This document shows positions 1-14,772 of a stretch of DNA of 38,221 nucleotides, piece by piece. The notes under the pieces are model-generated. The model was not told the DNA's origin, ran no database searches, and was given only the letters and a program-made list of their open reading frames with translations. The stretch comes from an uncultured Gammaproteobacteria bacterium. GTDB taxonomy: Bacteria > Patescibacteriota > Patescibacteriia > 2-01-FULL-39-33. Each line of letters begins with the position of its first letter. Positions within the stretch are counted from its first letter, which is position 1. The stretch is taken from NCBI GenBank assembly GCA_964573235.1, contig CAZNIV010000005.1:1-38221 (forward strand), in the 5' to 3' direction. Position numbers and translations under genes: made by a program.

Positions 1-616
1 GACTATCTATACCAAAAATATACTTTTCATCCGCCCAATACTGCATAAAATCATTAACATGCTCATCGTCACCATTGGCAATAATCGCCTTTGGCACTTC
101 ACTTCCACGATATGTTTTATGAGTTTCTTCGCGTAATTTAGCAAATAATTTTTCTTTCGCTTTTTGATAATTAACAAAACCGCCATGTGCCTCAATATGT
201 TCTGGAGTTAAATTGGTAAACACTGCGATATCATAATTAATACCCAAATGACGAAATTGATCAATGCCTTGAGAAGAAGTTTCAATTACCGCATGACTAC
301 AGCCAGCTTTTTTCATTTGCGACAAAATCTTTTGCAACCCAAAACGACCCAACATAGTCATTTTTTTATCATTGAGCCATTCCTGACCAGCAATTTTAAA
401 AGATACCGTTGAGGTAGAACCCACTTTATAGCCAGCTTGCTCTAAGATTTTAGCAATCAACGCTACCGTACTCGATTTACCATTGGTACCAGTTACGCCA
501 ATCACAATCATATCCTGACTAGGATTACGATAAAGACCCTTGGCCAGAAGAGCCATGGTTTTATGGTAATAAGCTAACGCTTTTTTATTAACAATCTTTT
601 TAATTAACGCTTTCAT
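1..616 (-). CDS. Mur ligase family protein (MurE-like), N-terminal part. The ORF continues past the window start, so this is a partial CDS.
   Basis: The minus-strand ATG at 616..614 opens an ORF with no stop before position 1. Its translation carries the Mur-ligase P-loop GVTGTNGKSST and the FTNLTPEHIEAHGG motif (compare FTN-L-x-x-DHLD-x-HG of MurE/MurF). It is absent from the ORF track because it is truncated. Confidence 0.7.
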   Translation of the reverse strand, partial: MKALIKKIVNKKALAYYHKTMALLAKGLYRNPSQDMIVIGVTGTNGKSSTVALIAKILEQAGYKVGSTSTVSFKIAGQEWLNDKKMTMLGRFGLQKILSQMKKAGCSHAVIETSSQGIDQFRHLGINYDIAVFTNLTPEHIEAHGGFVNYQKAKEKLFAKLREETHKTYRGSEVPKAIIANGDDEHVNDFMQYWADEKYIFGIDS

Positions 617-617
617 A

Positions 618-1202
618 CTATTTTTTGCCCAAATATTTCAAAGCTTCTTTAATTTTACCAGAAGTATCGGTGGCCGTCACATGCTTTAACGCCTCACGCA
701 CATCAAAAGCGCCATAACCTAACGCCATTAAGGCATCCATCGCCTCACCAAACTCATCGGTAATTACTTTACCATCAACACTTTCTAATGATCCTAATTT
801 ATCCTTCAAGCCCATGACAATTTTTTCGGCCGTTTTTGGTCCAATGCCCGATAACTTACTTAATAAATTATAATCACCGGTCATCACGCCTTGACGCAAA
901 TCTTCAATTTTGGCTTTTTGCATAATATCTGAAGCACTACGCGGACCAATACCCGAAATGGTTAACAACAATTCAAAAAAGTTTAATTCTTCTTGATTAA
1001 TAAAACCATATAAATCCAAAGCCGTTTCTGCCACCTGAGTGTAAATAAATAATTCCATCTCTTCATCAAGCACCGCCTGAGTAATTAATTTTAGGCCAAC
1101 ATAAACTTTATAGCCCACGCCATTAACATCGACAATTAAAAAATTATCCTTTTTACCAGGCAAGCTCTTGTTTCTAATTTTACCTCTCAAGTAAGCGATC
1201 AT
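618..1202 (-). CDS. ruvA: Holliday junction DNA helicase subunit RuvA
   Basis: 194-aa ORF. It has an N-terminal OB-fold region (LRGKI...DVNGVGYKV), tandem HhH motifs (ISGIGPRSA, LSGIGPKTAEKI) and a C-terminal RuvB-interaction region, the typical RuvA architecture. Confidence 0.88.
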   Translation of the reverse strand: MIAYLRGKIRNKSLPGKKDNFLIVDVNGVGYKVYVGLKLITQAVLDEEMELFIYTQVAETALDLYGFINQEELNFFELLLTISGIGPRSASDIMQKAKIEDLRQGVMTGDYNLLSKLSGIGPKTAEKIVMGLKDKLGSLESVDGKVITDEFGEAMDALMALGYGAFDVREALKHVTATDTSGKIKEALKYLGKK

Positions 1203-1206
1203 TAAC

Positions 1207-2457
1207 TTATTTTTTCTTTCTTAATAAACTGCCTTCTATTATAACATAATCAGCCGGCAATAAAACAGAAAACACTTCCTCGGTACCACCATGAGCCTCG
1301 GTAATATCTTCACCCTTGGCGTTAGTAATAATATGCAACCGCAAGGTGTATAAATTTTCTGGCGTTAAAATTTCTATTTTCTCATTCGCCAATAATGTAT
1401 TGTGCACTTTAATATAAGCGTGTATACCCGAAGCCTCTTTTTTTATCTTCACCACTTCACCTACCAACTCCCAATCGGTAAACGCTTTAGAGGTTTCAAA
1501 ATCTTCACGAGTTTCCGCTTCATTGCCCAATAAAAATCCGGTGGTATAACCACGATGATCCACCTTAAATAATTCTTCTCGCGCCTTAGCTAATAACTTT
1601 TGCTTATTTTTAATTTTAGGGTCTAACAGAATATCAATCGCTTGACGATAAGCATTGGTAATCGATGCTACATAATAATGACTTTTAGTACGCCCTTCGA
1701 TCTTAAAAGATATAACTCCCGCTTTTATCAACTCACTTAAATAATCAAATAAGCAAAGATCTTTGGAGTTTAAAATATAAGTACCCTTATCATCATTCTC
1801 CACTTCCAAAAATTCTCCTGGTCGTAATTTTTCTTCGAGCTTCACTTTGTAATCCCAGCGACATGGTTGCGTACACAAACCCTCATTGCCACTACGATTA
1901 TTTAACCAAGAAGATAAATAACAACGCCCGGAATAACTTAAACACATCGCGCCATGAACAAAAATTTCCAATTCCATTTTAGGCACCGCCTTATGAATCG
2001 CCTGAATATCTTTCAAACTCGTTTCGCGTCCTAAAATTACGCGATTCACGCCCATCTTTTTCCAAAACTTTACCGCCTCACTATTAATCGTATTAGCCTG
2101 AGTAGAAAGATGAATGGCAATTTGTGGACAATATTTTTGCGCCAAATGAATAATACCGGGATCAGAAATAATTAAAGCGTGCGGTTTTATTTTGGCTAAC
2201 TTTTTTAAATATTCCGGCAAAGCTTTAATGTGTTTTTCATGAGCAAAAATATTTATTGTGACATAAACTTTCTTTTTGTTTTTCTTGACATAGTCAATGG
2301 CTTTTTCTAAGCCACCTAAATCAAAACCAGTTTTCGCGCGCAAAGAAAAAGCGGGCAACCCACAATAAACCGCATCGGCGCCATACAAAAAAGCAAACTG
2401 CATTTTTTTAAGATCGCCAGCGGGAGATAATAATTCCACTAATTGTTTTTTAGCCAT
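1207..2457 (-). CDS. Peptidase U32 family protein (collagenase-like / PrtC-type)
   Basis: 416-aa ORF carrying the U32 signature E-x-F-x-H-G-A-M-C-x-S-Y-S-G-R-C (ELEIFVHGAMCLSYSGRCYLSS) and the downstream C-T-Q-P-C-R-W motif. Confidence 0.85.
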   Translation of the reverse strand: MAKKQLVELLSPAGDLKKMQFAFLYGADAVYCGLPAFSLRAKTGFDLGGLEKAIDYVKKNKKKVYVTINIFAHEKHIKALPEYLKKLAKIKPHALIISDPGIIHLAQKYCPQIAIHLSTQANTINSEAVKFWKKMGVNRVILGRETSLKDIQAIHKAVPKMELEIFVHGAMCLSYSGRCYLSSWLNNRSGNEGLCTQPCRWDYKVKLEEKLRPGEFLEVENDDKGTYILNSKDLCLFDYLSELIKAGVISFKIEGRTKSHYYVASITNAYRQAIDILLDPKIKNKQKLLAKAREELFKVDHRGYTTGFLLGNEAETREDFETSKAFTDWELVGEVVKIKKEASGIHAYIKVHNTLLANEKIEILTPENLYTLRLHIITNAKGEDITEAHGGTEEVFSVLLPADYVIIEGSLLRKKK

Positions 2458-2461
2458 AATT

Positions 2462-3397
2462 CTAGCGTTTGATTCTAATTAAACCAGAAAACGGCGCCAC
2501 TTCTACGCCTTGCTTTTCTATGGCATCAACCAATAAATTTACTCCCAATGAATCAGATGACATATGCCCAGCAATTACCACATTAACATGATTTTTAGAC
2601 GCTTCTTTTTTATGCTCTTCACTCATATGCATGCCAACAATGGTGCCGATACCCGCCTGCGACATTTTTTCATAAATTGCTTTACCATTAGAAGTGCCAC
2701 CAGTAATTTCAGTTAAAGCGATCTTGCCTGTGTAATTATCTTCGGCGCCGGCAAAAATTTTTGGACCAGATTTTCTTTTCATCGCTGCTTTATATTCGGG
2801 AATTTCTTTAAGCGCATCCATCAATTCACTAACTAGTTCAATCTTTTTGGTTTTTAAATATTTATCTAAAAAATTAGCCGCTAAATTATCACATGGCGTA
2901 TGTATGCACATGAAATTAATATTTAGCAAACGCGCCGCATCAACTGAGCGATCATGATTCGCCGGATTAACACTACGCACTACTTCAGAAATTCTTTCTT
3001 TAGTAATTGATTCCGCAATATTAATTGGCACGCCATATTGCGCCAACACTTCGGCTTGCAAATGCATGACATCACCTAAATCTGCTAACGCTTCACCTTC
3101 TGGGTGGTGCGCAATAACGGTATCATAACCCAATTGCTTAGCCAAAATAAGTTCTTGCGGATCTACATCAATGCCAAATAAAACTTTTTTTACTTCTGAG
3201 CCATTATCATACAAAATACGGGTGTCGGAATATGGATTAGTCAATCTTTCAACATCAAATTCCTTTTTAGCCTCCGCACTTAACTTTTCATATTTAGTCT
3301 TAGCTTTAACTAAATGACCGTTTACTTTTTCAACGCCACGCAAATCAGTTTCAATACCCATTTTAATCGCCAAAGCGTAAATATCCTTTAAAAACAT
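2462..3397 (-). CDS. Nif3-like dinuclear metal centre protein (YqfO/YbgI family)
   Basis: 311 aa with the conserved AHHP motif, a second metal-binding His cluster (GHMSSD) and size typical of Nif3/GTP cyclohydrolase 1 type 2 homologues. Confidence 0.75.
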   Translation of the reverse strand: MFLKDIYALAIKMGIETDLRGVEKVNGHLVKAKTKYEKLSAEAKKEFDVERLTNPYSDTRILYDNGSEVKKVLFGIDVDPQELILAKQLGYDTVIAHHPEGEALADLGDVMHLQAEVLAQYGVPINIAESITKERISEVVRSVNPANHDRSVDAARLLNINFMCIHTPCDNLAANFLDKYLKTKKIELVSELMDALKEIPEYKAAMKRKSGPKIFAGAEDNYTGKIALTEITGGTSNGKAIYEKMSQAGIGTIVGMHMSEEHKKEASKNHVNVVIAGHMSSDSLGVNLLVDAIEKQGVEVAPFSGLIRIKR

Positions 3398-3520
3398 ACA
3401 TCAACAATTTATTATTTAAGATTACTTGATACTCATATCATTTTTTCATTTTATGAGATAAAAGTCAAACAAAAAAGATTTTTAACCACTGCCTAATTAT
3501 AAGTTAAAAATAATCAGTAA

Positions 3521-3568
3521 ATTAAGATAAAAAAATAAAATAAAATCGACTCTTAACGAATCGATTTT
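3521..3568 (-). terminator. Rho-independent terminator downstream of the S1 protease gene
   Basis: Inverted repeat AAAATCGA...TCGATTTT (3542-3549 / 3561-3568). On the minus strand it is followed by a TTTTATTTTATTTTTTT run. Confidence 0.55.
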
Positions 3569-3601
3569 ATTTACCCAAAACTACTAATACCTCAATAACT
3601 A

Positions 3602-5785
3602 CTACTTGAAGGATAAAGTACTTAATACTTTATTAAAATCAACTAACGCATTCTGAAAAATCTTTTTATTATCAGTAAGAGCTGTCACGGTAATTGCCAA
3701 AAAATTATTATTAATTTTAATATAATAATCCCTATTGAAAGACAAGATCTTATCTTGACTCACAGTTTTTTCCGTACCATCAAAAATCATAACATCATTA
3801 ATCTCTTTATTCAATTTAAAGTGCGCAATAGTTTTGTCGATTGTATAATTATAGTCAATACTGGCAGTCTTTTGATTACTGGAATTAACCATATCCCTTA
3901 CGGAATTTATGTACTCCTCATTACTTAAGCCACCATCAGCATCGCTAATTTTTTCCAAAGAAAAGCTAACAAAAACTTCTTTATTTTTTTTATTTTGAAT
4001 TTTTAAGGGGCTAGCCTTACTGTTCTGTTTTAAAATAGCCCAATTAACATTCGTTGAAACACTAAATTTAGGTGAATCATTCACGTATTTATGAGTCTCA
4101 GTAAATGTTGTTTTATCGGAGATAATTTTAAATGAATTAACAATACTATCTACCACCTCCTTATCTTTATCATCTTTTCCATAAACATACTCCACCCAAA
4201 CCAAGTATTCTTTTTGAGGAAAAATATAACTATTTAGCATCTTTCCATTTGCCGACAAGGTAATGAGCTTTCCCTTGACATTGTTAATTTTTACTTCTTT
4301 CTCTTTGACTAGTCTTACCAGAGATGAAAAACCAAGATCATTAAAACTTTTTAAAATCATAGGCTTAATATCACCAAGACTAGTTAAGTATGGTGCTCTT
4401 AATAAGTCCACTATAACATAACCACCATCTTTATCATTTTTTTGAAATATCTTAACAATATTCTCTGATTCACTTTTAAAAGTCCAATCAACTGGCTTAT
4501 CTATTGTATAACGAGGATATGGGCTTGATTGAATATATTTATCAACTACTTTTAAAATTTTTTGTTTTCTAGATAAATTAATCATTCTATCTAATAATGA
4601 ACCATCTATGGGGGTTAAATATTTATTCGACTCTACCCAATCAAAAATCGAAGCTGAACTTAATAAAAATCCTAATTGTCCAGACACATCAGAGGCAACT
4701 TGAGTAGTAATTCCAATTACATTACCAATCGAATCAACAGCAGCGCCACCAGAACTACCGAAGGATATAGCCGCATCAGTTTTAATCCAACTATTACCAT
4801 ATTTACTAGCCTTACCACTTATTATCCCACTAGTTATAGTAATCGTATCTCCACCAATTGAAGGATAGCCTATCGTCGTAATCGTATCATTTACTTGACT
4901 TACGTCTGTCTGATTTAAGTGCAAATAAGGGAAAATGGGAACATCATTCCCTCCAGAAGTATCGACTATTTGTAACAAAGCAACGTCTTTATCTTCGTCC
5001 CTAGAAATAAGCTTAGCTAAATAATCACAACTAGGCTCTTCATTAATATTTTTAGTAAGACAAATTTGAAAAGTAGTTTCATAATCACTATTATCATAAT
5101 CGCTCCTTTTAGAAACAACATGGTCATTAGTTAAAATCAAACCAAATGTACCAATAATAATCCCTGATCCTTCCGCTATTTCCTCTAAAACAAAATTTTT
5201 ATTAAGCGCATAAGTTTTTACCTTAACAACCGATTTATAAGCATTTGTATTTAACAACGGGACCACTGCATTTGGCTGACTAACTGGATTAACTGAAACT
5301 ATTGGCTGATTAACTAGGTTAACTGACACTGTTGGCTGACTAGCTTGATTAACTGGGGTACTCAAAGGGGCCTGATTTGAACCACTGGCTGGATTTATAT
5401 CAAAAAAACCACTATCTATAACGATTGAACCGACCCCCTTATGATAAGCAATAACTTCAATCTGATAATTAATGCCAGATGAAAAAGTGCTGGGAATAAT
5501 CCAATCATACGAACCCGTAGTATTGGTTATTTCAACATCTTTACCAAATACTATCCAGTCTAAACAACTTGGGCATGACTTATAGCCTATCGTTACCATG
5601 TCGACATTAACTTGATTCCATTTTATAGTTATTTTTTCACCAACAGAAAAAGTTTCGCCACCGATCGGAGAAACAAGAGAAACCACTGGATCGCCAGTAG
5701 TGGCAAAAACTTGATGGGTACACAAAAAATTAGAAACCAACAAAAAAACCGCTACGGCTAATCCAGAAAAAAATTTCTTAATCAT
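3602..5785 (-). CDS. Secreted multidomain trypsin-like serine protease (S1 family)
   Basis: 727 aa. It has an N-terminal signal peptide (MIKKFFSGLAVAVFLLVSNFLCTHQVFA) and a catalytic triad context TNDHVV (His), DVALLQI (Asp), GSSGGA (Ser, GDSGG-like). A Q/P/V/S/N-rich linker is encoded by tandem DNA repeats, and C-terminal domains are unassigned. Confidence 0.7.
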   Translation of the reverse strand: MIKKFFSGLAVAVFLLVSNFLCTHQVFATTGDPVVSLVSPIGGETFSVGEKITIKWNQVNVDMVTIGYKSCPSCLDWIVFGKDVEITNTTGSYDWIIPSTFSSGINYQIEVIAYHKGVGSIVIDSGFFDINPASGSNQAPLSTPVNQASQPTVSVNLVNQPIVSVNPVSQPNAVVPLLNTNAYKSVVKVKTYALNKNFVLEEIAEGSGIIIGTFGLILTNDHVVSKRSDYDNSDYETTFQICLTKNINEEPSCDYLAKLISRDEDKDVALLQIVDTSGGNDVPIFPYLHLNQTDVSQVNDTITTIGYPSIGGDTITITSGIISGKASKYGNSWIKTDAAISFGSSGGAAVDSIGNVIGITTQVASDVSGQLGFLLSSASIFDWVESNKYLTPIDGSLLDRMINLSRKQKILKVVDKYIQSSPYPRYTIDKPVDWTFKSESENIVKIFQKNDKDGGYVIVDLLRAPYLTSLGDIKPMILKSFNDLGFSSLVRLVKEKEVKINNVKGKLITLSANGKMLNSYIFPQKEYLVWVEYVYGKDDKDKEVVDSIVNSFKIISDKTTFTETHKYVNDSPKFSVSTNVNWAILKQNSKASPLKIQNKKNKEVFVSFSLEKISDADGGLSNEEYINSVRDMVNSSNQKTASIDYNYTIDKTIAHFKLNKEINDVMIFDGTEKTVSQDKILSFNRDYYIKINNNFLAITVTALTDNKKIFQNALVDFNKVLSTLSFK
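5272..5361. repeat. Three tandem ~30-nt repeats (ttggctgac/t taactgg attaactga...) inside the protease gene
   Basis: The direct repeats are visible in the sequence. They encode the peptide repeats VNQPIVSVNP / VSQPNAVVPL / VNQASQPTVS (linker region). Confidence 0.7.
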
Positions 5786-5837
5786 ATTTTTTTAAAAAAT
5801 AATAACTCTTTAATCTATTTATTATACCATATAAATT

Positions 5838-5867
5838 AAAAACAAAAAGAAGCTCTTTTCGAGCTTC
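5838..5867 (-). terminator. Rho-independent terminator (minus strand) at the left edge of the GC-rich island
   Basis: Hairpin GAAGCTC-ttttc-GAGCTTC (5849-5867). On the minus strand it is followed by TTTTTGTTTTT. Confidence 0.55.
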
Positions 5868-5881
5868 CGCAGAATGCTGAT

Positions 5882-6073
5882 TTACTTCAGTAAAAATCCC
5901 GAAACGGCGGCTTGAACCAGTTCTGGACCGACTAAACTGTACGTGATCCAAGCCACGACTATTATAAACGGCACGACAAGCATAATTGTGGTCGCTAACC
6001 ATTGAGAGCGATGACGCCCCCGACCCCAGGAAATGTTGTGACAATCGTATTTTTCAATCCCCAGAATGGTCAT
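5882..6073 (-). CDS. Small hydrophobic (single predicted TM) protein of unknown function
   Basis: 63 aa with the hydrophobic stretch TIMLVVPFIIVVAWITYSLV. Its start overlaps the stop of the upstream HTH gene by 4 nt (ATGA), which suggests translational coupling. GC-rich island codon usage. Confidence 0.45.
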   Translation of the reverse strand: MTILGIEKYDCHNISWGRGRHRSQWLATTIMLVVPFIIVVAWITYSLVGPELVQAAVSGFLLK

Positions 6074-6273
6074 GACTTTTTACCCTCCATTGGCGATGTA
6101 GCGATCATGTGGCTTTCTAAAAATGCCACTAGATCCTTTTCAAATACTCGGTAGGTTTTGTGGCCGATTTTGGCGGCTCGCAATTCGCCCGCACTAATCC
6201 AACGGTACACAGTCTTTAGACTGACCTTCATTAGCGCTGACACCTCCTCAATTGTGAGTATTTGGTTAGCCAT
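6070..6273 (-). CDS. Helix-turn-helix DNA-binding protein, excisionase (Xis/AlpA/MerR-like) family
   Basis: 67 aa. LTIEEVSALMKVSLKTVYRWISAGELRAAKIGHKTYRV matches the excisionase-type HTH pattern (Lx-Ex-Ax-lxvSxxTvyrwixxGxlpaxkiGxxxRi). Confidence 0.65.
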   Translation of the reverse strand: MANQILTIEEVSALMKVSLKTVYRWISAGELRAAKIGHKTYRVFEKDLVAFLESHMIATSPMEGKKS

Positions 6274-6299
6274 TAACTCTTTTTCGATAAGATAGCGGA

Positions 6300-6590
6300 C
6301 AAGCTCTTTATCTCACTTTGCACCTTCCATGTGCTGTTTATAGTGTATGACTTATGTACTTAATTGTCAACAATAAGTTATGCACAGGGTTTATTTATTT
6401 TTAATTATAATTAATAGATTATTATAAATAGCTTATTATTATCTTAAATAACTATTTATTCTTAATTTAATCTATTTAATATTATTAAGATGTATTAATA
6501 TACTATCAGATATTATTATATGATTATTATTCTTTATTGTTCTTAATTGTCTAGTAATAAATAATAAATTATTCAAAAATAACGATAACC
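6300..6590. other. Extremely AT-rich (~12-15% GC) 290-bp tract separating the divergent island transcription units
   Basis: Direct reading shows runs of ATTATTA/TTAAT/TAAATA motifs. The tract is flanked by GC-rich coding DNA. Confidence 0.8.
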
Positions 6591-6592
6591 AT

Positions 6593-6697
6593 TGACTTTT
6601 TGCCAAAAATATGCTAGTCTAAACTGTTTGAATCGAACGGGCTTCATGTGAAGTTCGCGGTTATTCAAACAATCAAGTGTCCATTACAAGGAGTTAA
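6593..6697 (+). promoter_or_regulatory. Putative promoter (TTGACT -35; weak TAGTCT -10) and strong RBS (AAGGAG, 9 nt before the ATG) for the SPFH gene
   Basis: TTGACT at 6593-6598. AAGGAG at about 6688-6693, ahead of the ATG at 6703. Confidence 0.35.
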
Positions 6698-6702
6698 TTA
6701 TC

Positions 6703-8571
6703 ATGCCAAGCATCAGCAACACAGCAATCATGTGGATCAGTATTGTAGTGGGAGCGATCGTCCTGATCGCCTGCTACAAACTCCTCCTTCGCCTCTTCGG
6801 CGTGATCATCGTGCCGGAGGACAGCATCGGCATCGTCAACAAGCGATTCGTCATCTTCGGGGCAAATAAAACACTGCCCGATGGTGAAGTGGTCGCCATG
6901 AAAGGCGAGGCCGGCCTGCAAGCCGACACCCTGCCACCGGGACTGCACTTCCTGTATTGGCCATGGCAATACACGATCAGATTCCAAGGGTTTATCACCA
7001 TTGATGACGACAAAATCGGCATCGTGGAAGCTCGTGGCGGTAACGCCCTGACCAACGGTCGCGTGCTCGCCAAGCAGGTGGATTGCGACTCCTTCCAGGA
7101 TGTACGTAAATTCCTCGGCAATGGCGGCCAACGCGGTCCACAAATTGCGGTCATCCCACCGGGAACTTACCGCATCAACACCGAGTTCTTCTCAATTAAC
7201 CCAGCCAGTGTGCTGGAAATCGAGGATAACAAGGTTGGCATCGTCACCGTCAAGGACGGCGAGCCACTGACTACTGGCGAAATTGCCGGTAAGGAAATTG
7301 CTGGACACAACATGTTCCAGGAAGGCGAGAAGTTTATCATTGCCGGCGGCCATCGTGGCCTACAGGAGCAAGTACTTCTGGCTGGACGGTACTTCATCAA
7401 TCCGCGGTTCGCCACGGTGGACACTGTGGACATGACAACCGTGCCGATTGCCAATGTTGGCGTCGTGATTGCTTACGTCGGTGAAACCGGCGTCGACGTC
7501 ACTGGCGACCACTTCAAGCACGGCAACATGGTGAAAAAGGGGCAGAAAGGCGTCTGGGTCGATCCTCTCGATCCGGGAAAATACGCCATTAATATCCTGA
7601 CGCACAAGGTAGAAGCGGTGCCAACTGCCAATATCGTGCTCAACTGGGCCAATGGAAAGACCGAAGCGCACAATCTGGACAAAAACTTGTCCACGATCAC
7701 CGTGCGGTCGGCCGACGGATTCACATTCAATCTGGATGTGAGCCAAATCATACACATCCCGCGCGCCGATGCCCCCAAGGTCATCGCCAGATTCGGCAGT
7801 GTGGCCAACCTGGTCACACAGGTGCTTGAGCCAACCATCGGCAACTACTTCCGCAATACGGCGCAAAACAGTGACGTCATCGACTTCCTGAAGCATCGCA
7901 CGGCGCGACAAGAAGAAGCCAGGGCGGCAATTGCCAAGGCCCTTCAAGAGTATAATGTCGTCGCGGTGGACACCCTAATCGGTGACATCAACCCGCCGGC
8001 AGAACTCATGAAGACGCTCACCGACCGCAAGATCGCAGAGCAAGCGAAGGTAACCTACGACACACAAAAACTCGCGCAGGTTACGAGGCAGGAGCTGGAA
8101 GAAGCGACCGCCCGAGCCAACACCCAGGCGCGCGTCGTCGATGCGGAACGGCAAGTCGCCATCAAAACATTTGAGGCTAACGCCAATATCGAACAGGCCA
8201 AGGGTACGGCCGCAGCCAAGCGTGTGGAAGCAGACGCTGAAGGCTATCGTGTTACCACCATTGGAAACGCCGAGGGTGGTAAGATTGAAGTCATTGGTCT
8301 GGCCGAAGCGAAGGTCACCAAGGCCAAAATTGACTCCATGGAAGCCAACAACTACGCGGCCATCAAGGTGGCGGAAGCTTTGGCTGGTGCCGGCATCAAG
8401 CTGGTTCCCGACGTCATGGTTGTCGGTGGCAATGGCAGCAACGGCGGCGGAACACTGGTCGATGTTCTCCTGGCCAATACGATCAGGGATCAGTTGACCA
8501 GGGCAGCAAGCAAGACGGAAGCGGAAAAAACCACTACCACCGTCGAACCGGGAAAACCGGCCAGCAAGTAA
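6703..8571 (+). CDS. SPFH/band-7 domain membrane protein, flotillin-like (YqiK/FloT-like)
   Basis: 622 aa with an N-terminal TM helix (IMWISIVVGAIVLIACYKLLL) and an SPFH start pattern (VPEDSIGIVNKRFV...PPGLHFLYWPW). The C-terminal Ala/Glu-rich coiled-coil flotillin region (EEATARANTQARVVDAERQ...AEAKVTKAKIDSMEANNYAAIKVAEALAGAGIKLVPDVMVVGG) resembles the C-termini of bacterial flotillins. High-GC codon usage. Confidence 0.7.
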   Translation: MPSISNTAIMWISIVVGAIVLIACYKLLLRLFGVIIVPEDSIGIVNKRFVIFGANKTLPDGEVVAMKGEAGLQADTLPPGLHFLYWPWQYTIRFQGFITIDDDKIGIVEARGGNALTNGRVLAKQVDCDSFQDVRKFLGNGGQRGPQIAVIPPGTYRINTEFFSINPASVLEIEDNKVGIVTVKDGEPLTTGEIAGKEIAGHNMFQEGEKFIIAGGHRGLQEQVLLAGRYFINPRFATVDTVDMTTVPIANVGVVIAYVGETGVDVTGDHFKHGNMVKKGQKGVWVDPLDPGKYAINILTHKVEAVPTANIVLNWANGKTEAHNLDKNLSTITVRSADGFTFNLDVSQIIHIPRADAPKVIARFGSVANLVTQVLEPTIGNYFRNTAQNSDVIDFLKHRTARQEEARAAIAKALQEYNVVAVDTLIGDINPPAELMKTLTDRKIAEQAKVTYDTQKLAQVTRQELEEATARANTQARVVDAERQVAIKTFEANANIEQAKGTAAAKRVEADAEGYRVTTIGNAEGGKIEVIGLAEAKVTKAKIDSMEANNYAAIKVAEALAGAGIKLVPDVMVVGGNGSNGGGTLVDVLLANTIRDQLTRAASKTEAEKTTTTVEPGKPASK

Positions 8572-8599
8572 ACATCCACTTCAAGGATGAATAACCCAT

Positions 8600-8626
8600 A
8601 CGGGCAGACTATCTGCCCGTTTTTTA
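8600..8626 (+). terminator. Rho-independent terminator after the SPFH gene
   Basis: ACGGGCAGA-cta-TCTGCCCGT followed by TTTTTT. Confidence 0.75.
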
Positions 8627-8650
8627 ATTGTAAAATTACTATTATCCTGA

Positions 8651-8679
8651 TTGACAATAGCTATAAAAAGTGATAATCT
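8651..8679 (+). promoter_or_regulatory. Sigma70-like promoter (TTGACA, 17-nt spacer, TAATCT) upstream of the acidic repeat protein. The RBS AAGGAGA lies 8 nt before the ATG at 8744.
   Basis: Read directly: ttgacaatagctataaaaagtgataatct. Confidence 0.5.
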
Positions 8680-8743
8680 TGGCTGTTAGTTCTTTCACAT
8701 TCTATTCATATAAAAACAAGCAAAAACAACAAGGAGAAGCATC

Positions 8744-10423
8744 ATGAGTATCTGGTCAAAACTTTCTTCCTGGCTAGACGCCATCCGCGGTAATCAAAAA
8801 ACGCAACAGTATCGTCCAAGGCCTATGGCCAGTAAAACGGTTGAACGAAAAACCAGCCTCGACCCCATTCCCAAAATGGAAAAAGCGGAACCGACATCAA
8901 GAGAAGAGCAGACTGTCAAAGCTATTTTGGAAACAATCGGCGACGACAACGAAGATTTGGTTAGAAGGGTTTTGGGAAATAAACCGTCCAGGCCCGGAAC
9001 GCCAAGTCTCCGCGAAAAATTCTTCGCGGCCACCACTGTCGAGGAATTACTTGAGATCCGAAAAAAGGTTCAGCTGGAAAGCGAACTGGAACGTCAAGTC
9101 AATCAAAAAATTGACGACCTGCTCCGGCGCGAACTGGAACAATCATCATCAATCGACGAATGTCTGGATGTTTACGAAAAATCACCGCCCAAAAGCGCGA
9201 TCGAGAAATTGGCCGCCGAAAAAATTCTCAGCCTAATTCAGGATGAGAATGACTGCCAAGAAGTTATTGACGAAAGTCCGTCGAACAGTTGGCTGGAAAC
9301 CCAAGCCAAGCAAAAGAAAAAAAAGCTGCTTCTGGAAAAAATCCGCACTGCCACCAACATCGATGACCTGATGGAAATCGATCTGAAAGGTTTTACGGAT
9401 GACCCGGAAATCAATCAGCAATTCAACGCTCAAGTTTTGGCTTTGACCAAGACCACTAAAGATTGCCTAAGCATCTGCGAAGATCATGATCTGAGCGACG
9501 AGCTGAAACTGCAATTACTGACCAAGGCGCTTGAGCTGACCGTCGGTGAAGATGAGTGCGTGGAAATTTTCCAAAACACCGACGATGATTCGCTACAAGA
9601 AAAAGCGGCCATGCGAGCTATCACCATCGCCGAAACCGTAGAAGATCGTTTATCGGCCATCGAAGAAATGTCGATGGATGAAGACTTGAAAGAAAAGTTA
9701 CTGCAAGCAATTTTGGCTACCGCCGAAACTCCTGAAGACTGCCACCGCGTGTTTTTAGCGGCGACATCCGACAGTGAAATCGAAAAGCAAGCGATCAAAA
9801 AAGCCACTGGCCTGGTCAATTCCTTCAGTGAGTGCGAAAAAATCTTTGATGATCAGCTTCACTGGGACGAGGTTCTGGAAAGGCTACTGGAACTGGCCAC
9901 CAACGAAGATGAATACCTGGTCGTCATCGAACAGGCTGAGGGTGAATACGGGAATGATGAAATAGCACAAAAGGCGTATGAGAAATTACTGACCGTGGTC
10001 AACAATTTCGAAAAATGCCAAAAGTACTACTACAACTGCCCCGACGAGCTCAAGCCATGGTTTTTGGAAAAAGCGCTAACCCTGGTTGCCATCATTGAAG
10101 ATTGCAACTGGGTCCATGAGGAATCCGAAAGTGACAGCGATTTGGAAAAATTGGCCGGCGATAAACTCGACGCCATGATTCTGGGAGAACTGCCCACCGC
10201 TAATTCCTTTGACGAATGCCTGGATCTTTTTGAAACCACTCTCACTGATGGTCCAGCAGAATGGCCGACATTCGAAAAAGCACTAGCCCTGACGACAACC
10301 GTCAAGCAATGTGCTCGGCTTTACCAAGTTGCGACCAACTACTACGAAGATCATCAGGAAATGGCCCATCGCTGTATCCGAAAAATGGCGGAAATTATCC
10401 GAATGCAAGGCTTTCGGAATTAA
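8744..10423 (+). CDS. Highly acidic helical-repeat protein with about 13 tandem ~31-residue repeats, each bearing a conserved [DE]-[DE]-C-x-x-[IVL]-[FY] motif. Function unknown.
   Basis: 559 aa and very D/E-rich. Cys at 140, 171, 241, 272, 333, 364, 425, 454, 492 and 523, mostly spaced 29-31 residues apart (two larger steps, 70 and 61, are about two units each). The repeat-opening motifs are IDECLDVY, ENDCQEVI, TKDCLSIC, EDECVEIF, PEDCHRVF, FSECEKIF, FEKCQKYY, IEDCNWVH, FDECLDLF and VKQCARLY. The tails are helix-like (EKALALT, EKLLQAILATA). Degenerate units lack the Cys (VEDRLSAIEE, NEDEYLVVIE). Confidence 0.6.
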   Translation: MSIWSKLSSWLDAIRGNQKTQQYRPRPMASKTVERKTSLDPIPKMEKAEPTSREEQTVKAILETIGDDNEDLVRRVLGNKPSRPGTPSLREKFFAATTVEELLEIRKKVQLESELERQVNQKIDDLLRRELEQSSSIDECLDVYEKSPPKSAIEKLAAEKILSLIQDENDCQEVIDESPSNSWLETQAKQKKKKLLLEKIRTATNIDDLMEIDLKGFTDDPEINQQFNAQVLALTKTTKDCLSICEDHDLSDELKLQLLTKALELTVGEDECVEIFQNTDDDSLQEKAAMRAITIAETVEDRLSAIEEMSMDEDLKEKLLQAILATAETPEDCHRVFLAATSDSEIEKQAIKKATGLVNSFSECEKIFDDQLHWDEVLERLLELATNEDEYLVVIEQAEGEYGNDEIAQKAYEKLLTVVNNFEKCQKYYYNCPDELKPWFLEKALTLVAIIEDCNWVHEESESDSDLEKLAGDKLDAMILGELPTANSFDECLDLFETTLTDGPAEWPTFEKALALTTTVKQCARLYQVATNYYEDHQEMAHRCIRKMAEIIRMQGFRN

Positions 10424-10446
10424 TATTCGCCCAACACCGCCCCACA

Positions 10447-10485
10447 GAGGACTAGCGCATCGACGCTATCCTCTTTTTTATTTTT
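10447..10485 (+). terminator. Rho-independent terminator for the acidic-protein gene
   Basis: GAGGA(c)TAGCG-catcga-CGCTATCCTC stem followed by TTTTTTATTTTT. Confidence 0.65.
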
Positions 10486-10516
10486 CCAAAATAAAAAGCG
10501 GATCCCAATGATCCGC
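10486..10516 (-). terminator. Rho-independent terminator for the convergent 219-aa gene
   Basis: Perfect inverted repeat GCGGATC-ccaat-GATCCGC (10498-10516). On the minus strand it is followed by TTTTTATTTTGG. Confidence 0.65.
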
Positions 10517-10523
10517 AAAACTT

Positions 10524-11183
10524 TCAACCTTCCAAATTAAATTCCAATTGCTCAGATCGCCCAACGCGCGCCCAGCAAGAAGGAAAGGAGATTCCTGGCA
10601 ACACCTGATCCAGCCTTTTCTCCTCCATTAGTGGAGCATCGTAGTGTGTTAAGCCAATAACCGGGAAACAATCTTCTCGTCCTCTCACCATCGAACCAAT
10701 TGCCCCCGTACCCAGCCAATTTGGCTGAGCGGTAAACAAATAATGATATTGAGTGGCTAAAGCAATATTTTCAGCACAAGTCAGTGGATAGCCCTGACAT
10801 TTAGCAATAGCCATGACTCCTGACTGAGCCTGACCGGAATCATTGGCCACCAATTCAAACCCGGTTCTCACCTTGATGGCAAAATAAGGTTCTACTGACA
10901 CCAAGTACCGATCAGTTACATCACCTTGTTTAATGTAACTATTACCACCCATACCACTGCGATAAACCGTTTGCATTTGCACGGCAGGACCGAATATTGA
11001 GAGTGGCACCACTGCCAGTAAGGGTATTTCCCCTTCAGTAAACTGCAAACTCTCGGCGCGAAAAACAGCTGCCGACATAACCTGGCGCAAACCATCAATA
11101 TGCCGACCATAACTGGTGTGCTCACGCAGATAATCAATCTGCGTCGTTGCTACTTTTTGTAGCTCTACTGACGAAAAACGCAT
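10524..11183 (-). CDS. Hypothetical protein (219 aa) encoded in the GC-rich island. No family recognised.
   Basis: GC-rich ORF with a strong RBS (AAAGGAG, 7 nt before the ATG) and its own terminator. Contains a conserved-looking Cys (IAKCQGY) and His (LTHYDAP), but I cannot assign a fold. Confidence 0.5.
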   Translation of the reverse strand: MRFSSVELQKVATTQIDYLREHTSYGRHIDGLRQVMSAAVFRAESLQFTEGEIPLLAVVPLSIFGPAVQMQTVYRSGMGGNSYIKQGDVTDRYLVSVEPYFAIKVRTGFELVANDSGQAQSGVMAIAKCQGYPLTCAENIALATQYHYLFTAQPNWLGTGAIGSMVRGREDCFPVIGLTHYDAPLMEEKRLDQVLPGISFPSCWARVGRSEQLEFNLEG

Positions 11184-11282
11184 GATTGACTCCTTTCTAA
11201 ACTGATTTCAATTTAAGGTGCATCATTAACTGATAATTCAAACTAACAAAAATCAAAATATTTAGCAAATATCCCAAAAACA

Positions 11283-11310
11283 AAAAACCGCAGGGGTTAA
11301 CCGACGACTT
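11283..11310. repeat. Copy A of a ~28-bp direct repeat (aaaaccgc[a/c]ggggttaaccgacga[c/t]ttt) flanking the GNAT gene
   Basis: Matches 11873-11900 at about 25 of 28 positions. On the minus strand both copies read as a GC-rich segment followed by a T-run, i.e. terminator-like, and each sits downstream of a minus-strand gene. Confidence 0.6.
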
Positions 11311-11321
11311 TTAACTCATAG

Positions 11322-11789
11322 CTATATCTTTTTAAACCAAACAGTGGCTTCTTTTTTAAAATCTAAGTTTTGCCAAACATTTTCAGCCAATTCATTTCCT
11401 ACGAGTGTTTTTAATTCTAAATAATTTATTCTTTTAGCCTTACAATACTCTATAACACATTCTAACAACTCTTTCGCCACACCCTTACCGCGCCAATTAT
11501 TATCTACACCGCATTCATCAACATAACAATATCTTCTTATTTTAAACCAAGCTATATTTTTAACAATCGAAAATGCAATATACCCTATTATTTTATCATT
11601 CTCTACGGCAACATAAGTATTGGTTTTTTTATCTTTTATTGTCAGTCTAGCGTCTTTAATACTATTCTTTAGATTAGTATCTACTGAGCACTCAAAAAGA
11701 GGGGTCGGGTCTTTGTGATATTCCCAAAATTGAACGTATAATTCCGCTAAACCTTTTGTATCTTTTATGGTAGCTTTTCTTATCTTCAT
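11322..11789 (-). CDS. GNAT family N-acetyltransferase
   Basis: 155 aa with acetyl-CoA motif A (CYVDECGVDNNWRGKGVAKELL), i.e. Q/R-x-x-G-x-G/A. Confidence 0.8.
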   Translation of the reverse strand: MKIRKATIKDTKGLAELYVQFWEYHKDPTPLFECSVDTNLKNSIKDARLTIKDKKTNTYVAVENDKIIGYIAFSIVKNIAWFKIRRYCYVDECGVDNNWRGKGVAKELLECVIEYCKAKRINYLELKTLVGNELAENVWQNLDFKKEATVWFKKI

Positions 11790-11872
11790 TTTTTTAAACT
11801 ATTTATATTCGCTAACTAATATTCCTTTAATCTTACTTCCCCAAAATACAAATGTCAAACTATTAAATACAA

Positions 11873-11900
11873 AAAAACCGCCGGGGTTAACCGACGATTT
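11873..11900. repeat. Copy B of the direct repeat, immediately downstream of ileS
   Basis: See copy A. Confidence 0.6.
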
Positions 11901-11916
11901 TTTATCAGAAAAAATA

Positions 11917-14772
11917 TTAAATTTTCTCTACTTTCAATTTAACTTCTTCGCCATTAACTTCTACTATTTCACCCTCATCGGCATTTTCCATTTTTTCCGT
12001 TAATGTTGATTTCATCAATTCATTTTTAAGCTTATTATCCGCCAATAATTTTTGGATAATATCTCCCTGACTATGCCATTGCACCTTTACTTTATCTCCC
12101 AAAGTTAAACCTTGCTTTTTGCGCATATCATTAATGGCGCGAACCATTTCGCGCAAGGCCGCGGCAATTTTCAACTCCTCAGTAATTACTAAATCCAACT
12201 CCACTTTAATTTCCGCGCTCTTAGCAAATTCCACTTTAAGCACATTAACTTCATCAGCGATCAACTGCGCCAAAGACGCATCTAAATCATAACCAAAAGC
12301 GATTAACTTACCAAGCGGTTGGCGAATCTTCATGCCATTTTTAGCGCGCTCGGCTAAACCTAATTCCACAATTTTACGCACCTGATCCATTTGTTCCACC
12401 GTTTTCTTTTCTTCAGAAGTTAATTCTTTAGCTTCCGGCCAAGTAGCCAAATGCACCGAAGTTTTATCACCACCAACGGCCAAATAAATGTAATCAGCAA
12501 TAAATGGCATAAACGGCGCCATCACCTTAGACAATTCCAACAATACTGTACGGAAAGTCGCCAAAGCTTGTTGTTTATCTTGCTCGTTTTCACTCTTAAA
12601 GCGATCGCGAGAACGACGCAACCACCAAGTAGAAAATTCATCAATAAAATTCTGAATTGGACGAGAGGCTCGAGGCAAGTCATATTTCTCCATGGCATTC
12701 GTCACTTCAGAAATCAAAGCACACAACTTAGCGATTAACCATTGATCCAAAACATTTTTACTATTCATCATTAATTCCGTTTTACCTTCATCATACAACT
12801 GATAAAAATTCAAAATATTTTGTAGTAACATGATATTCTTTTGCAACGCTTCTTTCACGCCAGCCTCGGCAAAATTTAAATTTTCAGCCGATACCACTGG
12901 CGAAGACAACAAATAATAACGCATCGCATCAGCGCCATATTTTTCCATTACAATTTCTGGATCAGGATAATTCTTTAAGCGCTTAGACATCTTTTTGCCG
13001 TCCTCAGCCAACACGGTGCCGTTAACAATCACGTTTTTAAACGCCACTTTATTATTGATAGCAGTTGAGATGACATGCAAATAATAAAACCAAGCGCGAG
13101 TCTGATCAATACCTTCAGCAATAAATTGTGCCGGAAACTTTTTAGCAAATTTTTCTTGATTTTCAAACGGATAATGTTCTTGGGCAAACGGCATCGAACC
13201 GGATTCAAACCAACAATCCAACACATCAGGAATGCGTTTCATTATGCCCGAACACTTTGGACAAGTTACCGCAACATGATCAATCTTATGCTTATGCAAA
13301 TCGGTAATTTTTTCCCCGCTATCTTTTTCTAAATCAGCAATAGCGCCATAAACTTTTAACTCACCGCAACTACACTTCCAAATTGGCATACATGACGCCC
13401 AAAAACGCTGACGAGAAATAGACCAGTCGCGCGCGCCAGCTAACCAATGACCAAAACGACCTTCTTTAATATGTTCTGGCGACCAATTAATCTCTTGTGC
13501 CAACTCCAGCGCCTTTTCTTTAACTGAGGTTACTTTAACAAACCAAGAAGAAGTAGCATAATTGATGAGCGGAGTATCACAGCGCCAGCAATGCGGGTAG
13601 CTGTGCTCATATTTTTCTTTAGTAAACAATAAATTTTTACCGGCTAAATATTTAATCACGGCCACATCAGTTTGCTGAGTGTCTTCAGCTGGTTTTACAT
13701 TAGCGCCCGGAAAATCCACCACCTCAGCAGTAAAATGGCCACTCATCGTCACGTTTTGAATAAATGGCAAATTCTTTTCTTTACCTAACAACATATCTTC
13801 TTCACCAAAAGCCGGGGCAATATGCACCACTCCAGTACCATCAGAAGTAGTGACAAAATTAGCGCTCACTACTGTGTACAAATTTTCGCGATTGGGTGTC
13901 GTTTCATTTAAATAATAAGAAAATAAAGGATGATATTTGCGACCCACTAATTTATCGGCCGTCAATTCTTCGATTACGGTATAATCGCCTTTGATAATTT
14001 CTAATCTCGCTTTAGCTAAGATAAAATATTCATCATCTTTTTTAATTTTGACATATTCAATCTCTTCTCCCACTGCCAAAGCCACATTGGCTGGCAAGGT
14101 CCAAGGAGTAGTCGTCCAAGCTAAAATAAAAGTACCGGATTCACCCACTAGTTCAAACTTAGCGGTCGCGGATAAATCTTTAATATCACGATAACCTTCG
14201 CTCACTTCTTGTTGTGACAAAGTAGTTTCACAGCGCGGACAAACATGCATTGATTTATAGCCTTCATAAACCAAGCCTTTGTCCCATAATTGCTTAAAAG
14301 TCCACCAAACACTTTCCATGTAATCTTGATCCATGGTTTTATAAGCATTTTCCATATCCGCCCAACGACCAAAACGTTTCATGGTCTTCTTCCACTCTTC
14401 CACATAAGTTAAAACCCGACTTCGACAAAGTTCATTAAATTTGGCCACGCCAATTTCTTCAATATCTTTTTTACTTTTCAAATCTAATTCTTTTTCCACG
14501 ATATTTTCAATTGGCAAGCCATGACAATCCCAACCCCAACGACGCTCTACAAAATGGCCCTTCATCGTCCAATATCTTGGCACGACATCTTTCATCACTG
14601 AAGCTACTAAATGGCCGTAGTGTGGCGTGCCCGTAGCAAATGGCGGACCATCATAAAAAGAATAGCGTGGGCCATTTTTGGTTTGCTCCAAAGAAGCTTC
14701 AAAAACCTTTTGATCTTCCCAAAGTTTTTGTGTCGCTTTTTCGCGATCATTGATGGATAATTTTTCTGCCAT
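11917..14772 (-). CDS. ileS: Isoleucyl-tRNA synthetase
   Basis: 951 aa. Class I motifs PHYGHL (HIGH) and KMSKR (KMSKS), the IleRS-specific GWDCHGLPIE, an editing (CP1) domain and Zn-finger-like CPRC...CWRC / CSCG...CPKC clusters. Confidence 0.92.
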   Translation of the reverse strand: MAEKLSINDREKATQKLWEDQKVFEASLEQTKNGPRYSFYDGPPFATGTPHYGHLVASVMKDVVPRYWTMKGHFVERRWGWDCHGLPIENIVEKELDLKSKKDIEEIGVAKFNELCRSRVLTYVEEWKKTMKRFGRWADMENAYKTMDQDYMESVWWTFKQLWDKGLVYEGYKSMHVCPRCETTLSQQEVSEGYRDIKDLSATAKFELVGESGTFILAWTTTPWTLPANVALAVGEEIEYVKIKKDDEYFILAKARLEIIKGDYTVIEELTADKLVGRKYHPLFSYYLNETTPNRENLYTVVSANFVTTSDGTGVVHIAPAFGEEDMLLGKEKNLPFIQNVTMSGHFTAEVVDFPGANVKPAEDTQQTDVAVIKYLAGKNLLFTKEKYEHSYPHCWRCDTPLINYATSSWFVKVTSVKEKALELAQEINWSPEHIKEGRFGHWLAGARDWSISRQRFWASCMPIWKCSCGELKVYGAIADLEKDSGEKITDLHKHKIDHVAVTCPKCSGIMKRIPDVLDCWFESGSMPFAQEHYPFENQEKFAKKFPAQFIAEGIDQTRAWFYYLHVISTAINNKVAFKNVIVNGTVLAEDGKKMSKRLKNYPDPEIVMEKYGADAMRYYLLSSPVVSAENLNFAEAGVKEALQKNIMLLQNILNFYQLYDEGKTELMMNSKNVLDQWLIAKLCALISEVTNAMEKYDLPRASRPIQNFIDEFSTWWLRRSRDRFKSENEQDKQQALATFRTVLLELSKVMAPFMPFIADYIYLAVGGDKTSVHLATWPEAKELTSEEKKTVEQMDQVRKIVELGLAERAKNGMKIRQPLGKLIAFGYDLDASLAQLIADEVNVLKVEFAKSAEIKVELDLVITEELKIAAALREMVRAINDMRKKQGLTLGDKVKVQWHSQGDIIQKLLADNKLKNELMKSTLTEKMENADEGEIVEVNGEEVKLKVEKI

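Follow-up and report, generated by a model that had tools for sequence, protein, structure and literature searches.

A probably foreign GC-rich gene block between the IleRS and NIF3 genes of a Patescibacteria-like chromosome

How does a run of five GC-rich genes come to stand in the aminoacyl-tRNA synthetase-rich core region of an AT-rich genome? The question is raised by positions 1 to 38,221 of contig CAZNIV010000005.1 (assembly GCA_964573235.1), hereafter the window (38,221 nt), where an earlier note, made from the sequence alone, had described a GC-rich island at ~5870-11280 and read it as recently acquired from a higher-GC donor. The five genes span 5882-11183 (the island) within a block of ~5848-11200, and the 23 other genes of the window form the comparison set. 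Their identities are as the note had described them: a gene for a helix-turn-helix (HTH) protein overlapping one for a small membrane protein (TM63), an SPFH gene, a gene for an acidic protein of 559 aa with Cys-containing repeats and a gene for a 219-aa protein. We conclude that the block is very probably foreign DNA in a gene-gain hotspot between the genes for isoleucyl-tRNA synthetase (IleRS) and NIF3, in a Patescibacteria-like chromosome that is AT-rich and poor in Shine-Dalgarno (SD) sites, and that its cargo is a mosaic and not self-mobile. The event is ordinary cross-phylum horizontal gene transfer, of a known kind and unusually well marked, and it leaves the current understanding of horizontal transfer unchanged.

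The composition of the block was assessed at several levels. In 200-nt windows the GC fraction is 0.44-0.585 at 5900-6300 and 6650-11200, and ~0.27-0.42 in the flanks and the rest of the window. Gene by gene, the island lies between 0.456 and 0.559 and the 23 others average 0.363 (sd 0.039, maximum 0.424); even the lowest-GC island gene is above the highest-GC gene among the others (range 27-42%). The GC content at third codon positions (GC3; Table 1) compares with 0.32 +/- 0.05 in the 23 host genes, with a maximum of 0.417. The Jensen-Shannon distance of tetranucleotide frequencies to the remaining window is 0.059-0.097 for 2-kb windows starting at 6001-9001 and 0.010-0.036 elsewhere, that is, 3-10 times background over the island. 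Both sliding-window measures that the earlier note had proposed thus peak over the island. The jump from 35% to 50-55% GC that it had described is real, but the upper figure fits the SPFH gene only, the other island genes being at 46-47%. The block is likewise confirmed but not its continuity: a divergent intergenic spacer of below-host GC at 6300-6650 splits it in two. The many spurious overlapping open reading frames (ORFs) ascribed to the GC-rich sequence are indeed seen in the ORF list.

The island is correctly assembled and not chimeric. The window is matched at 99.99-100% identity by four contigs that derive from other assemblies or samples and that together cross both junctions. L003 runs from the flank (RuvA to the trypsin-like peptidase) through the left junction and the AT-rich spacer into the SPFH gene; L004, L005 and L006 run from the island interior through the right junction into the GNAT and IleRS genes. 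The left junction, the spacer and the right junction are each spanned by at least one other assembly, and the mis-assembly against which the earlier note had cautioned is very improbable.

The start sites of translation set the island apart as well. An SD core of at least 5 nt precedes four of the five island genes against one of the 23 others (Fisher p = 0.0012), and among relatives of the window a strong SD site was found at none of 76 NIF3 genes and at one of 34 RuvA genes. These counts indicate that the host lineage is SD-poor and that the island retains a foreign style of translation start. AAGGAG stands 6-9 nt upstream of the SPFH (9 nt), 559-aa and 219-aa (6 nt) genes, GGAGG 10 nt upstream of TM63, and only a weak GAG before the HTH gene; an AAGGAG-type site, previously ascribed to every gene, is therefore present at three, with GGAGG at TM63, and missing from the HTH gene. 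Strong AAGGAG sites in an SD-poor lineage offer an independent marker of foreign genes, and they raise the question of efficient translation. A literature search on SD usage in Patescibacteria found nothing relevant.

Four transcription units may be proposed, namely the HTH gene with TM63 and the SPFH, 559-aa and 219-aa genes each alone. Candidate sigma-70-like promoters are found at three of the four; the 219-aa unit, with no near-consensus -35 upstream, is the exception, and TM63 is without a promoter of its own. A near-consensus TTGACA had been claimed for every gene, but the hexamer is exact for the HTH and 559-aa units only; the SPFH gene has TTGACT, and the 219-aa and TM63 genes have none. 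The claim of clean rho-independent terminators stands in full, all four consisting of a stable hairpin followed by a U-run. Since all four units end in terminators and the three single-gene units open with a strong SD site, they may have arrived expression-ready with donor-type signals; the HTH-TM63 operon has a strong SD site at its second gene only. Rfam recognised no RNA family in the window.

What the island has entered is shown by the flanks. The best relatives of the window IleRS are 52-58% identical and come mostly from metagenome-assembled genomes (MAGs) labelled Patescibacteria; next among the IleRS matches, at 44-48%, are Paceibacteria, Nomurabacteria and other candidate-phyla labels. 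The recipient chromosome is Patescibacteria-like, AT-rich and reduced. Relatives conserve the gene order ArgRS-RR (response regulator)-IleRS-gap-NIF3-(U32)-RuvA, and the common IleRS-NIF3-RuvA block defined a set of 119 loci, 39 from genomes and 80 from metagenomes. In the 31 relatives with both genes the IleRS-NIF3 gap ranges from 65 bp to ~7.9 kb, the genes being adjacent in many loci; the slot is empty, or holds a 250-aa stomatin, LemA and HtpX, or, in the closest relatives, an SGNH hydrolase and an acyltransferase. Because gap size and cargo vary in this way, the island appears to sit in a recurrent gene-gain hotspot, used across the lineage. None of the seven genes in the slot of the window (the five of the island and those for the trypsin-like peptidase and GNAT) is present at any of the 119 loci.

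The SPFH gene is the most clearly foreign of the five. Its YqiK-type product has an N-terminal membrane helix and a Band_7 domain (PF01145, 95.1 bits against a cut-off of 23.6, residues 282-466), and is 60-73% identical over 85-97% of its length to proteins named ‘uncharacterized membrane protein YqiK’ or ‘SPFH domain-containing protein’. It alone of the island proteins has many homologues; among these 8000, those named at 56-65% identity include Niveibacterium, Ralstonia, Uliginosibacterium, Rhodocyclales, Steroidobacteraceae and Bdellovibrio, with Betaproteobacteria at 60-65%; one from a Candidatus Acidoferrum MAG is 68% identical. The window protein falls in a clade of short forms (600-638 aa) in which it stands apart, at 67-73% identity to members that are 69-89% identical to one another; members of the clade are found on a 64% GC contig with OEP, RND, MacB and ddl-ftsQAZ and on a 60% GC contig with GH43 and S9 peptidase. 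The similarity extends to the DNA, which is 66-68% identical over 1.25-1.46 kb to SPFH genes of Ralstonia megaplasmids (blastn E = 1e-104 to 1e-115). Since copies occur on these megaplasmids, on a 33% GC phage-like contig and in a 642-kb phage (52% identical), the family is plainly mobile.

Like the YqiK-type flotillin-like scaffolds of Proteobacteria, the window protein combines an N-terminal helix, a long N-terminal region, Band_7 and an Ala/Glu/Lys-rich helical C-terminus; it differs in being a short form (Betaproteobacterial proteins have ~675-690 aa) and in its Patescibacteria-like genome. By analogy with other SPFH scaffolds, it would oligomerise on the membrane through its N-terminal helix. 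In Escherichia coli an NfeD-type partner adjoins YqiK in the yqiJ-yqiK operon; no NfeD/YqiJ-type partner was found among the neighbouring ORFs (Pfam) or beside the closest SPFH homologues. The contexts of the closest homologues have no neighbour in common with one another or with the island, SPFH standing alone, which led us to drop an operon transfer of the island out of the closest SPFH lineages.

The phage-like contig mentioned above (L128, 1-17815, and L129, 1-14047; Logan SRR31980948 and SRR31712302) carries dozens of small ORFs, a DNA methylase, GmrSD_N and TnpB. Its short-form SPFH gene is 69% identical to that of the window and has a host-like GC3 of 0.31, which shows that the clade rides low-GC mobile elements too.

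Horizontal acquisition from a higher-GC donor, as the earlier note had proposed, is thus upheld by composition, by the affinity of the SPFH protein to other phyla and by the absence of the genes from the 119 relatives; a search for the donor lineage points the same way, with SPFH nearest to 60-64% GC diderm contigs, Betaproteobacteria and Candidatus Acidoferrum against Patescibacteria-like flanks. Two elements of that proposal are doubtful. The acquisition cannot be called recent when the nearest SPFH homologue is only 73% identical; this distance, with the outlying position in the clade, would suit either an early transfer or a donor that has yet to be sampled. Nor does a single donor sit easily with GC3 values that differ between island genes from 0.41 to 0.68. 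Because GC3 differs, the ultra-AT spacer separates two blocks and the SPFH contexts have no shared neighbours, we favour a mosaic or several events.

Table 1. Positions of island genes, expression signals, slot features and boundary elements in the window, and contigs of other assemblies that match it. GC3 z scores are relative to the 23 host genes. MFE, minimum free energy.
Feature	Position	Strand	Details
TM63, 63-aa basic protein, one predicted membrane helix	5882..6073	-	ORF; GC 0.469, GC3 0.50, z = 3.4
67-aa HTH_17 DNA-binding protein, excisionase family	6070..6273	-	Pfam HTH_17, E = 4e-16, 59.5 bits (cut-off 27); GC3 0.50, z = 3.4
622-aa SPFH/Band-7 membrane protein, YqiK (COG2268) type	6703..8571	+	Pfam Band_7, E = 6.5e-27; GC 0.559, GC3 0.676 (0.68), z = 6.7
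559-aa acidic protein (pI 4.5, 13 Cys)	8744..10423	+	at least 11 helical-hairpin repeats of ~31 aa, each opening [DE]-[DE]-C-x-x-[VI]-[FY]; GC3 0.52, z = 3.8
219-aa protein, very divergent DUF5701-family relative	10524..11183	-	HMMER relatives; GC3 0.41, z = 1.7
Divergent intergenic spacer	6300..6650		13-27% GC, below host; short tandem and inverted AT repeats
Promoter-like site, HTH gene	6342..6370	-	TTGACA-17-TACACT; TTGACA 6365-6370; 10/12 consensus positions
Promoter-like site, SPFH gene	6592..6620	+	TTGACT-17-(TGc)TAGTCT; TTGACT 6592-6597; read by eye, below consensus-scan threshold
Promoter-like site, 559-aa gene	8651..8679	+	TTGACA-17-(TGa)TAATCT; TTGACA 8651-8656; read from sequence
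Rho-independent terminator, HTH-TM63 operon	5848..5868	-	8-bp stem and U-run; MFE -13.1 kcal/mol, z = -2.1
Rho-independent terminator, SPFH gene	8600..8620	+	9-bp stem, 6 GC pairs, T-run; MFE -15.7 kcal/mol, z = -4.0
Rho-independent terminator, 559-aa gene	10446..10474	+	MFE -14.7 kcal/mol, z = -4.5; then UUUUUUAUUUUU
Rho-independent terminator, 219-aa gene	10498..10516	-	7-bp stem, 5 GC pairs, T-run; z = -2.5; converges on 559-aa gene
Variable slot NIF3-IleRS	3398..11916		8.5 kb; holds GNAT, island, trypsin-like peptidase
Trypsin-like peptidase	3602-5785		host-like gene in slot, lineage-specific
GNAT	11322-11789		host-like gene in slot, lineage-specific; GC 0.31
11-nt direct repeat AAAAACAAAAA, left copy	5838..5848	+	also U-tract of TM63 terminator, minus strand
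11-nt direct repeat AAAAACAAAAA, right copy	11276..11286	+	exact copy
Degenerate copy (93%) of IleRS terminator	11282..11310	-	just outside island, downstream of GNAT; IleRS original 11872-11900
L003 (NCBI GCA_037133135.1)	15-7344		one mismatch (blastn)
L004 (ERZ27300010)	7353-11398		100% identity (blastn)
L005 (ERZ27300082)	10166-13423		100% identity (blastn)
L006 (JGI 3300020163)	10251-11716		100% identity (blastn)

Several observations weigh against a foreign block in a Patescibacteria-like slot. The label of the host is indirect, two of the closest IleRS matches being labelled ‘uncultured Gammaproteobacteria’ in their records; both have the same synteny as the Patescibacteria-labelled ones. 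Synteny was read from remote relatives, whose NIF3 is at most 80% and whose IleRS is at most 65% identical, and no empty-site allele was found in any close strain. No donor is pinpointed, the nearest SPFH homologue being 73% identical, and the GC3 of the 219-aa gene lies near the top of what the host genes span. For two of the five proteins, homologues that could inform on origin are lacking or nearly so, and the case for their being foreign is made by composition, by SD sites and by their absence in relatives. Finally, the window offers no integrase, transposase or tRNA gene to account for the insertion, and its repeats are not convincing as att sites.

Under the foreign-origin reading, entry would have been by DNA uptake followed by illegitimate or microhomology-mediated recombination, without an integrase, and may have involved more than one event or donor. 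Patescibacteria are naturally competent. The divergently transcribed HTH protein might then regulate the SPFH gene from the AT-rich spacer. Comparison is best made with genomic islets, which lack mobility genes and occupy hotspots between core genes: the island likewise has atypical GC, GC3 and tetranucleotides, a slot of variable content, and accessory and homologue-less cargo with one gene affine to another phylum. It differs in being without a tRNA gene, integrase or clear direct repeats and heterogeneous in internal composition, and in having a recipient that is reduced, AT-rich and SD-poor, so that foreign SD sites become an extra marker. With its verified junctions, a slot defined by synteny and nucleotide-level similarity in one gene, it is a clean and well-controlled case of genes passing between phyla into a reduced genome of Patescibacteria-like type; its interest is modest, and lies in the SD contrast within an SD-poor lineage and in a large repeat protein without detectable homologue.

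The alternative that survives best, though we think it unlikely, is that the block is the remnant of a self-mobile integrative element (a prophage, an integrative and conjugative element or an integrative mobilizable element), with the HTH gene as its last mobility gene and the 11-nt repeats of Table 1 as att scars. The HTH protein does match the excisionase family, both in the TIGR01764 ‘excise’ domain (51 bits, where the cut-off is 28.8) and in PHROG excisionase families (E ~1e-9), but the earlier wording ‘excisionase-type’ says no more than what its fold is. Like the Xis/AlpA/BldC-like and MerR-like HTH_17 proteins covered by TIGR01764, it is a single-domain winged-HTH protein well over the domain cut-offs. 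HTH_17 proteins are, however, often plain regulators and, unlike Xis, this one has no partner integrase; coupled to TM63 and diverging from the SPFH gene, it is more like a local regulator. It is probably a small regulator divergent from the SPFH gene. Its stop codon overlaps the TM63 start as ATGA (6070-6073), an arrangement by which TM63 is predicted to be translationally coupled to it. TM63 itself had no match in the family libraries (Pfam, PHROG, NCBIfam, PADLOC).

The repeats themselves are equivocal. The 11-mer AAAAACAAAAA has only two plus-strand copies in the window and they bracket the island exactly, but it is an A-rich terminator tail that doubles as U-tract in two terminators, and it departs only slightly from chance expectation (p ~0.015-0.045): a repeat of this length between the boundary zones arose in 1.5-4.5% of shuffles and in one of 55 host intergenic pairs. 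It is a weak candidate for a target duplication. That SPFH relatives ride on phage-like contigs and on plasmids would also suit an integrative remnant, but apart from the SPFH gene no phage or plasmid DNA matched the island, INPHARED phage DNA included, and a scan of viral contigs showed no full-length relative of the SPFH or the 559-aa protein, giving a single SPFH hit with 20 residues aligned and none for the 559-aa protein. A literature search on SPFH/YqiK with phage found nothing relevant. The Pfam scan covered ORFs of at least 120 aa, minus spurious ORFs overlapping real genes, together with the short island ORFs, and found no integrase, recombinase, transposase, phage or conjugation gene in the 38-kb window; ARAGORN found no tRNA or tmRNA gene there. 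The earlier note had suggested looking for an integrase or tRNA gene just outside the window; none lies inside it.

Just beyond the right-hand repeat, a 29-nt element at 11282-11310 recurs at 11872-11900, where it is the terminator of the IleRS gene (two matches against none expected). On folding, the IleRS copy gives z = -3.3, as a bidirectional-type hairpin, and the GNAT-side copy z = 0.1. A duplicated terminator thus stands on either side of the GNAT gene, which looks as if it had been inserted into the 3' region of the IleRS gene or copied together with it.

The remaining island proteins bear on a second alternative, in which SPFH scaffold, acidic solenoid and DUF5701-like protein form one membrane module, for example for stress, defence or host interaction, that moved as a unit. 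The 559-aa protein has no detectable homologue but itself among 5.8 billion proteins and no match in Pfam, PHROG, NCBIfam or PADLOC; its structure model, an all-alpha solenoid, matches no known structure specifically, and the protein is a candidate for a lineage-specific invention or a fast-evolving cargo gene of mobile elements. For the 219-aa protein a word-indexed search likewise found only itself, and a full HMMER search of 1.8 billion representatives gave nine weak relatives, the best at 43% identity (E = 1e-21). One of these, the repeat protein P0133, was set aside as probably spurious, leaving an alignment of the query and eight relatives. Five of these nine sequences match Pfam PF18959 (DUF5701; best E = 3e-16); the query itself falls under the threshold and has no other family match. 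It shares with DUF5701 (~200 aa) a similar length and the motifs G-x-IP-x-L-x-V-x-P, PY-x-x-x-V, PLT-x-x-E-x-IAL and a C-terminal PSC, but is only 25-43% identical to the family and misses every Pfam threshold. An AF2 model from the nine-sequence alignment was poor (pLDDT 55), and a resemblance of the N-terminal helices to armadillo repeats in a PDB profile search was judged spurious. A literature search on DUF5701 found nothing, nor did one on the assembly accession.

Such a module is improbable. The genes are tightly packed and each expression-ready, the regulator is divergent, and some relatives hold membrane-quality-control genes (stomatin, LemA, HtpX) in the same slot. But SPFH is alone in homologous contexts, and those of the 219-aa relatives, on short contigs of 0.8-3.5 kb, have no conserved partner and no SPFH or repeat-protein neighbour. 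GC3 is unequal (0.68, 0.52 and 0.41), and the closest relatives of the host carry unrelated cargo in the slot. A search of the island proteins against PADLOC-DB identified no defence system, giving only a weak generic hit for the HTH protein (mad1, 30 bits), which scores 32 bits against a cut-off of 80 for the NCBIfam MAD1 equivalog, and a chance-level hit for the 219-aa protein.

The two closest relatives of the 219-aa protein (38-43% identical) lie on 42% GC contigs of metagenome ERZ27300176, an accession in the numerical range of two samples that hold the island, which suggests a shared study. On one of these two contigs (L132, k141_527303, 59-1061) the homologue is cut after ~84 residues beside what, by eye, is a convergent IS30-like transposase fragment. 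This looks like disruption of a rare gene family by an insertion sequence.

A more specific scenario, equally doubtful, is that the block records an episymbiotic association: a Patescibacteria cell whose physical partner was a diderm of higher GC, similar to Betaproteobacteria or Acidobacteria, would have taken up DNA of this host or of a host plasmid and kept the SPFH gene and the lineage-restricted 559-aa and DUF5701-like genes as a new membrane or host-interface module under the HTH protein. If so, translation of the island genes would start at SD sites while the lineage elsewhere does without them.

That the genes are instead native, inherited vertically with a composition reflecting amino-acid content or expression level, is very improbable. 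All are intact with proper signals, and the 219-aa gene is within reach of the host GC3 maximum; but GC3 values of 0.50-0.68 cannot stem from protein composition, the genes are missing from all 119 syntenic relatives, SPFH keeps its nucleotide-level similarity to Ralstonia genes, and SD sites are present in the island and nearly absent from host and lineage. Weakest of all is an assembly chimera, a GC-rich block of another organism joined to an AT-rich contig by the assembler, which the abrupt composition change at both ends and the break of other contigs within the SPFH gene at 7344/7353 might suggest, but which is largely refuted since the same two mis-joins would be needed in four assemblies, with L003 crossing the left junction and L004, L005 and L006 the right.

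The end of L003 (7344) and the start of L004 (7353) nearly coincide inside the SPFH gene, which may point to reduced coverage or to strain differences there. Around this break lies an imperfect inverted repeat of 30 nt (6885-6914 and 7487-7516).

LemA, a 250-aa stomatin-type SPFH protein and the HtpX protease are found in the slots of L007 (7423-9677), L008 (8209-9671), L009 (13021-13782), L068, L081, L083 and L095. Set beside the different SPFH protein and the secreted trypsin-like protease of the window, this cargo could reflect functional analogy or coincidence. The idea that the island displaced a stomatin/LemA/HtpX cargo was set aside, as the closest relatives carry SGNH hydrolase and acyltransferase and many slots are empty.

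Elsewhere in the window, six aminoacyl-tRNA synthetase genes lie within 24 kb (11917-35715), interleaved with two-component system genes; they encode IleRS, ArgRS, ThrRS, ProRS, a TrpRS/TyrRS-class enzyme and a class II Asp/Lys/Asn-type enzyme. In several relatives (L056, 4570-8004, and L027-L042) IleRS has a large insertion between query residues ~490 and 491 that the window protein is without; in L056 it resembles, on reading the sequence by eye, a histidine-phosphatase-type domain. The radical-SAM gene at 24890-26347 is the sole non-island gene with a strong SD site (GGAGGT) and has the highest GC among host genes (0.424, rising to 0.456 at 25001-25500, a 500-nt window); it may be another gene of foreign origin, acquired earlier. 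At 35894-38095 the window encodes a protein of 733 aa that combines LVIVD repeats and a beta-propeller with a Peptidase_S74 (endosialidase chaperone) domain. This architecture is characteristic of tail-fibre proteins of phages or of surface proteins; the GC content at its second codon positions (0.50) is unusual and its tetranucleotide distance (0.036) is raised.

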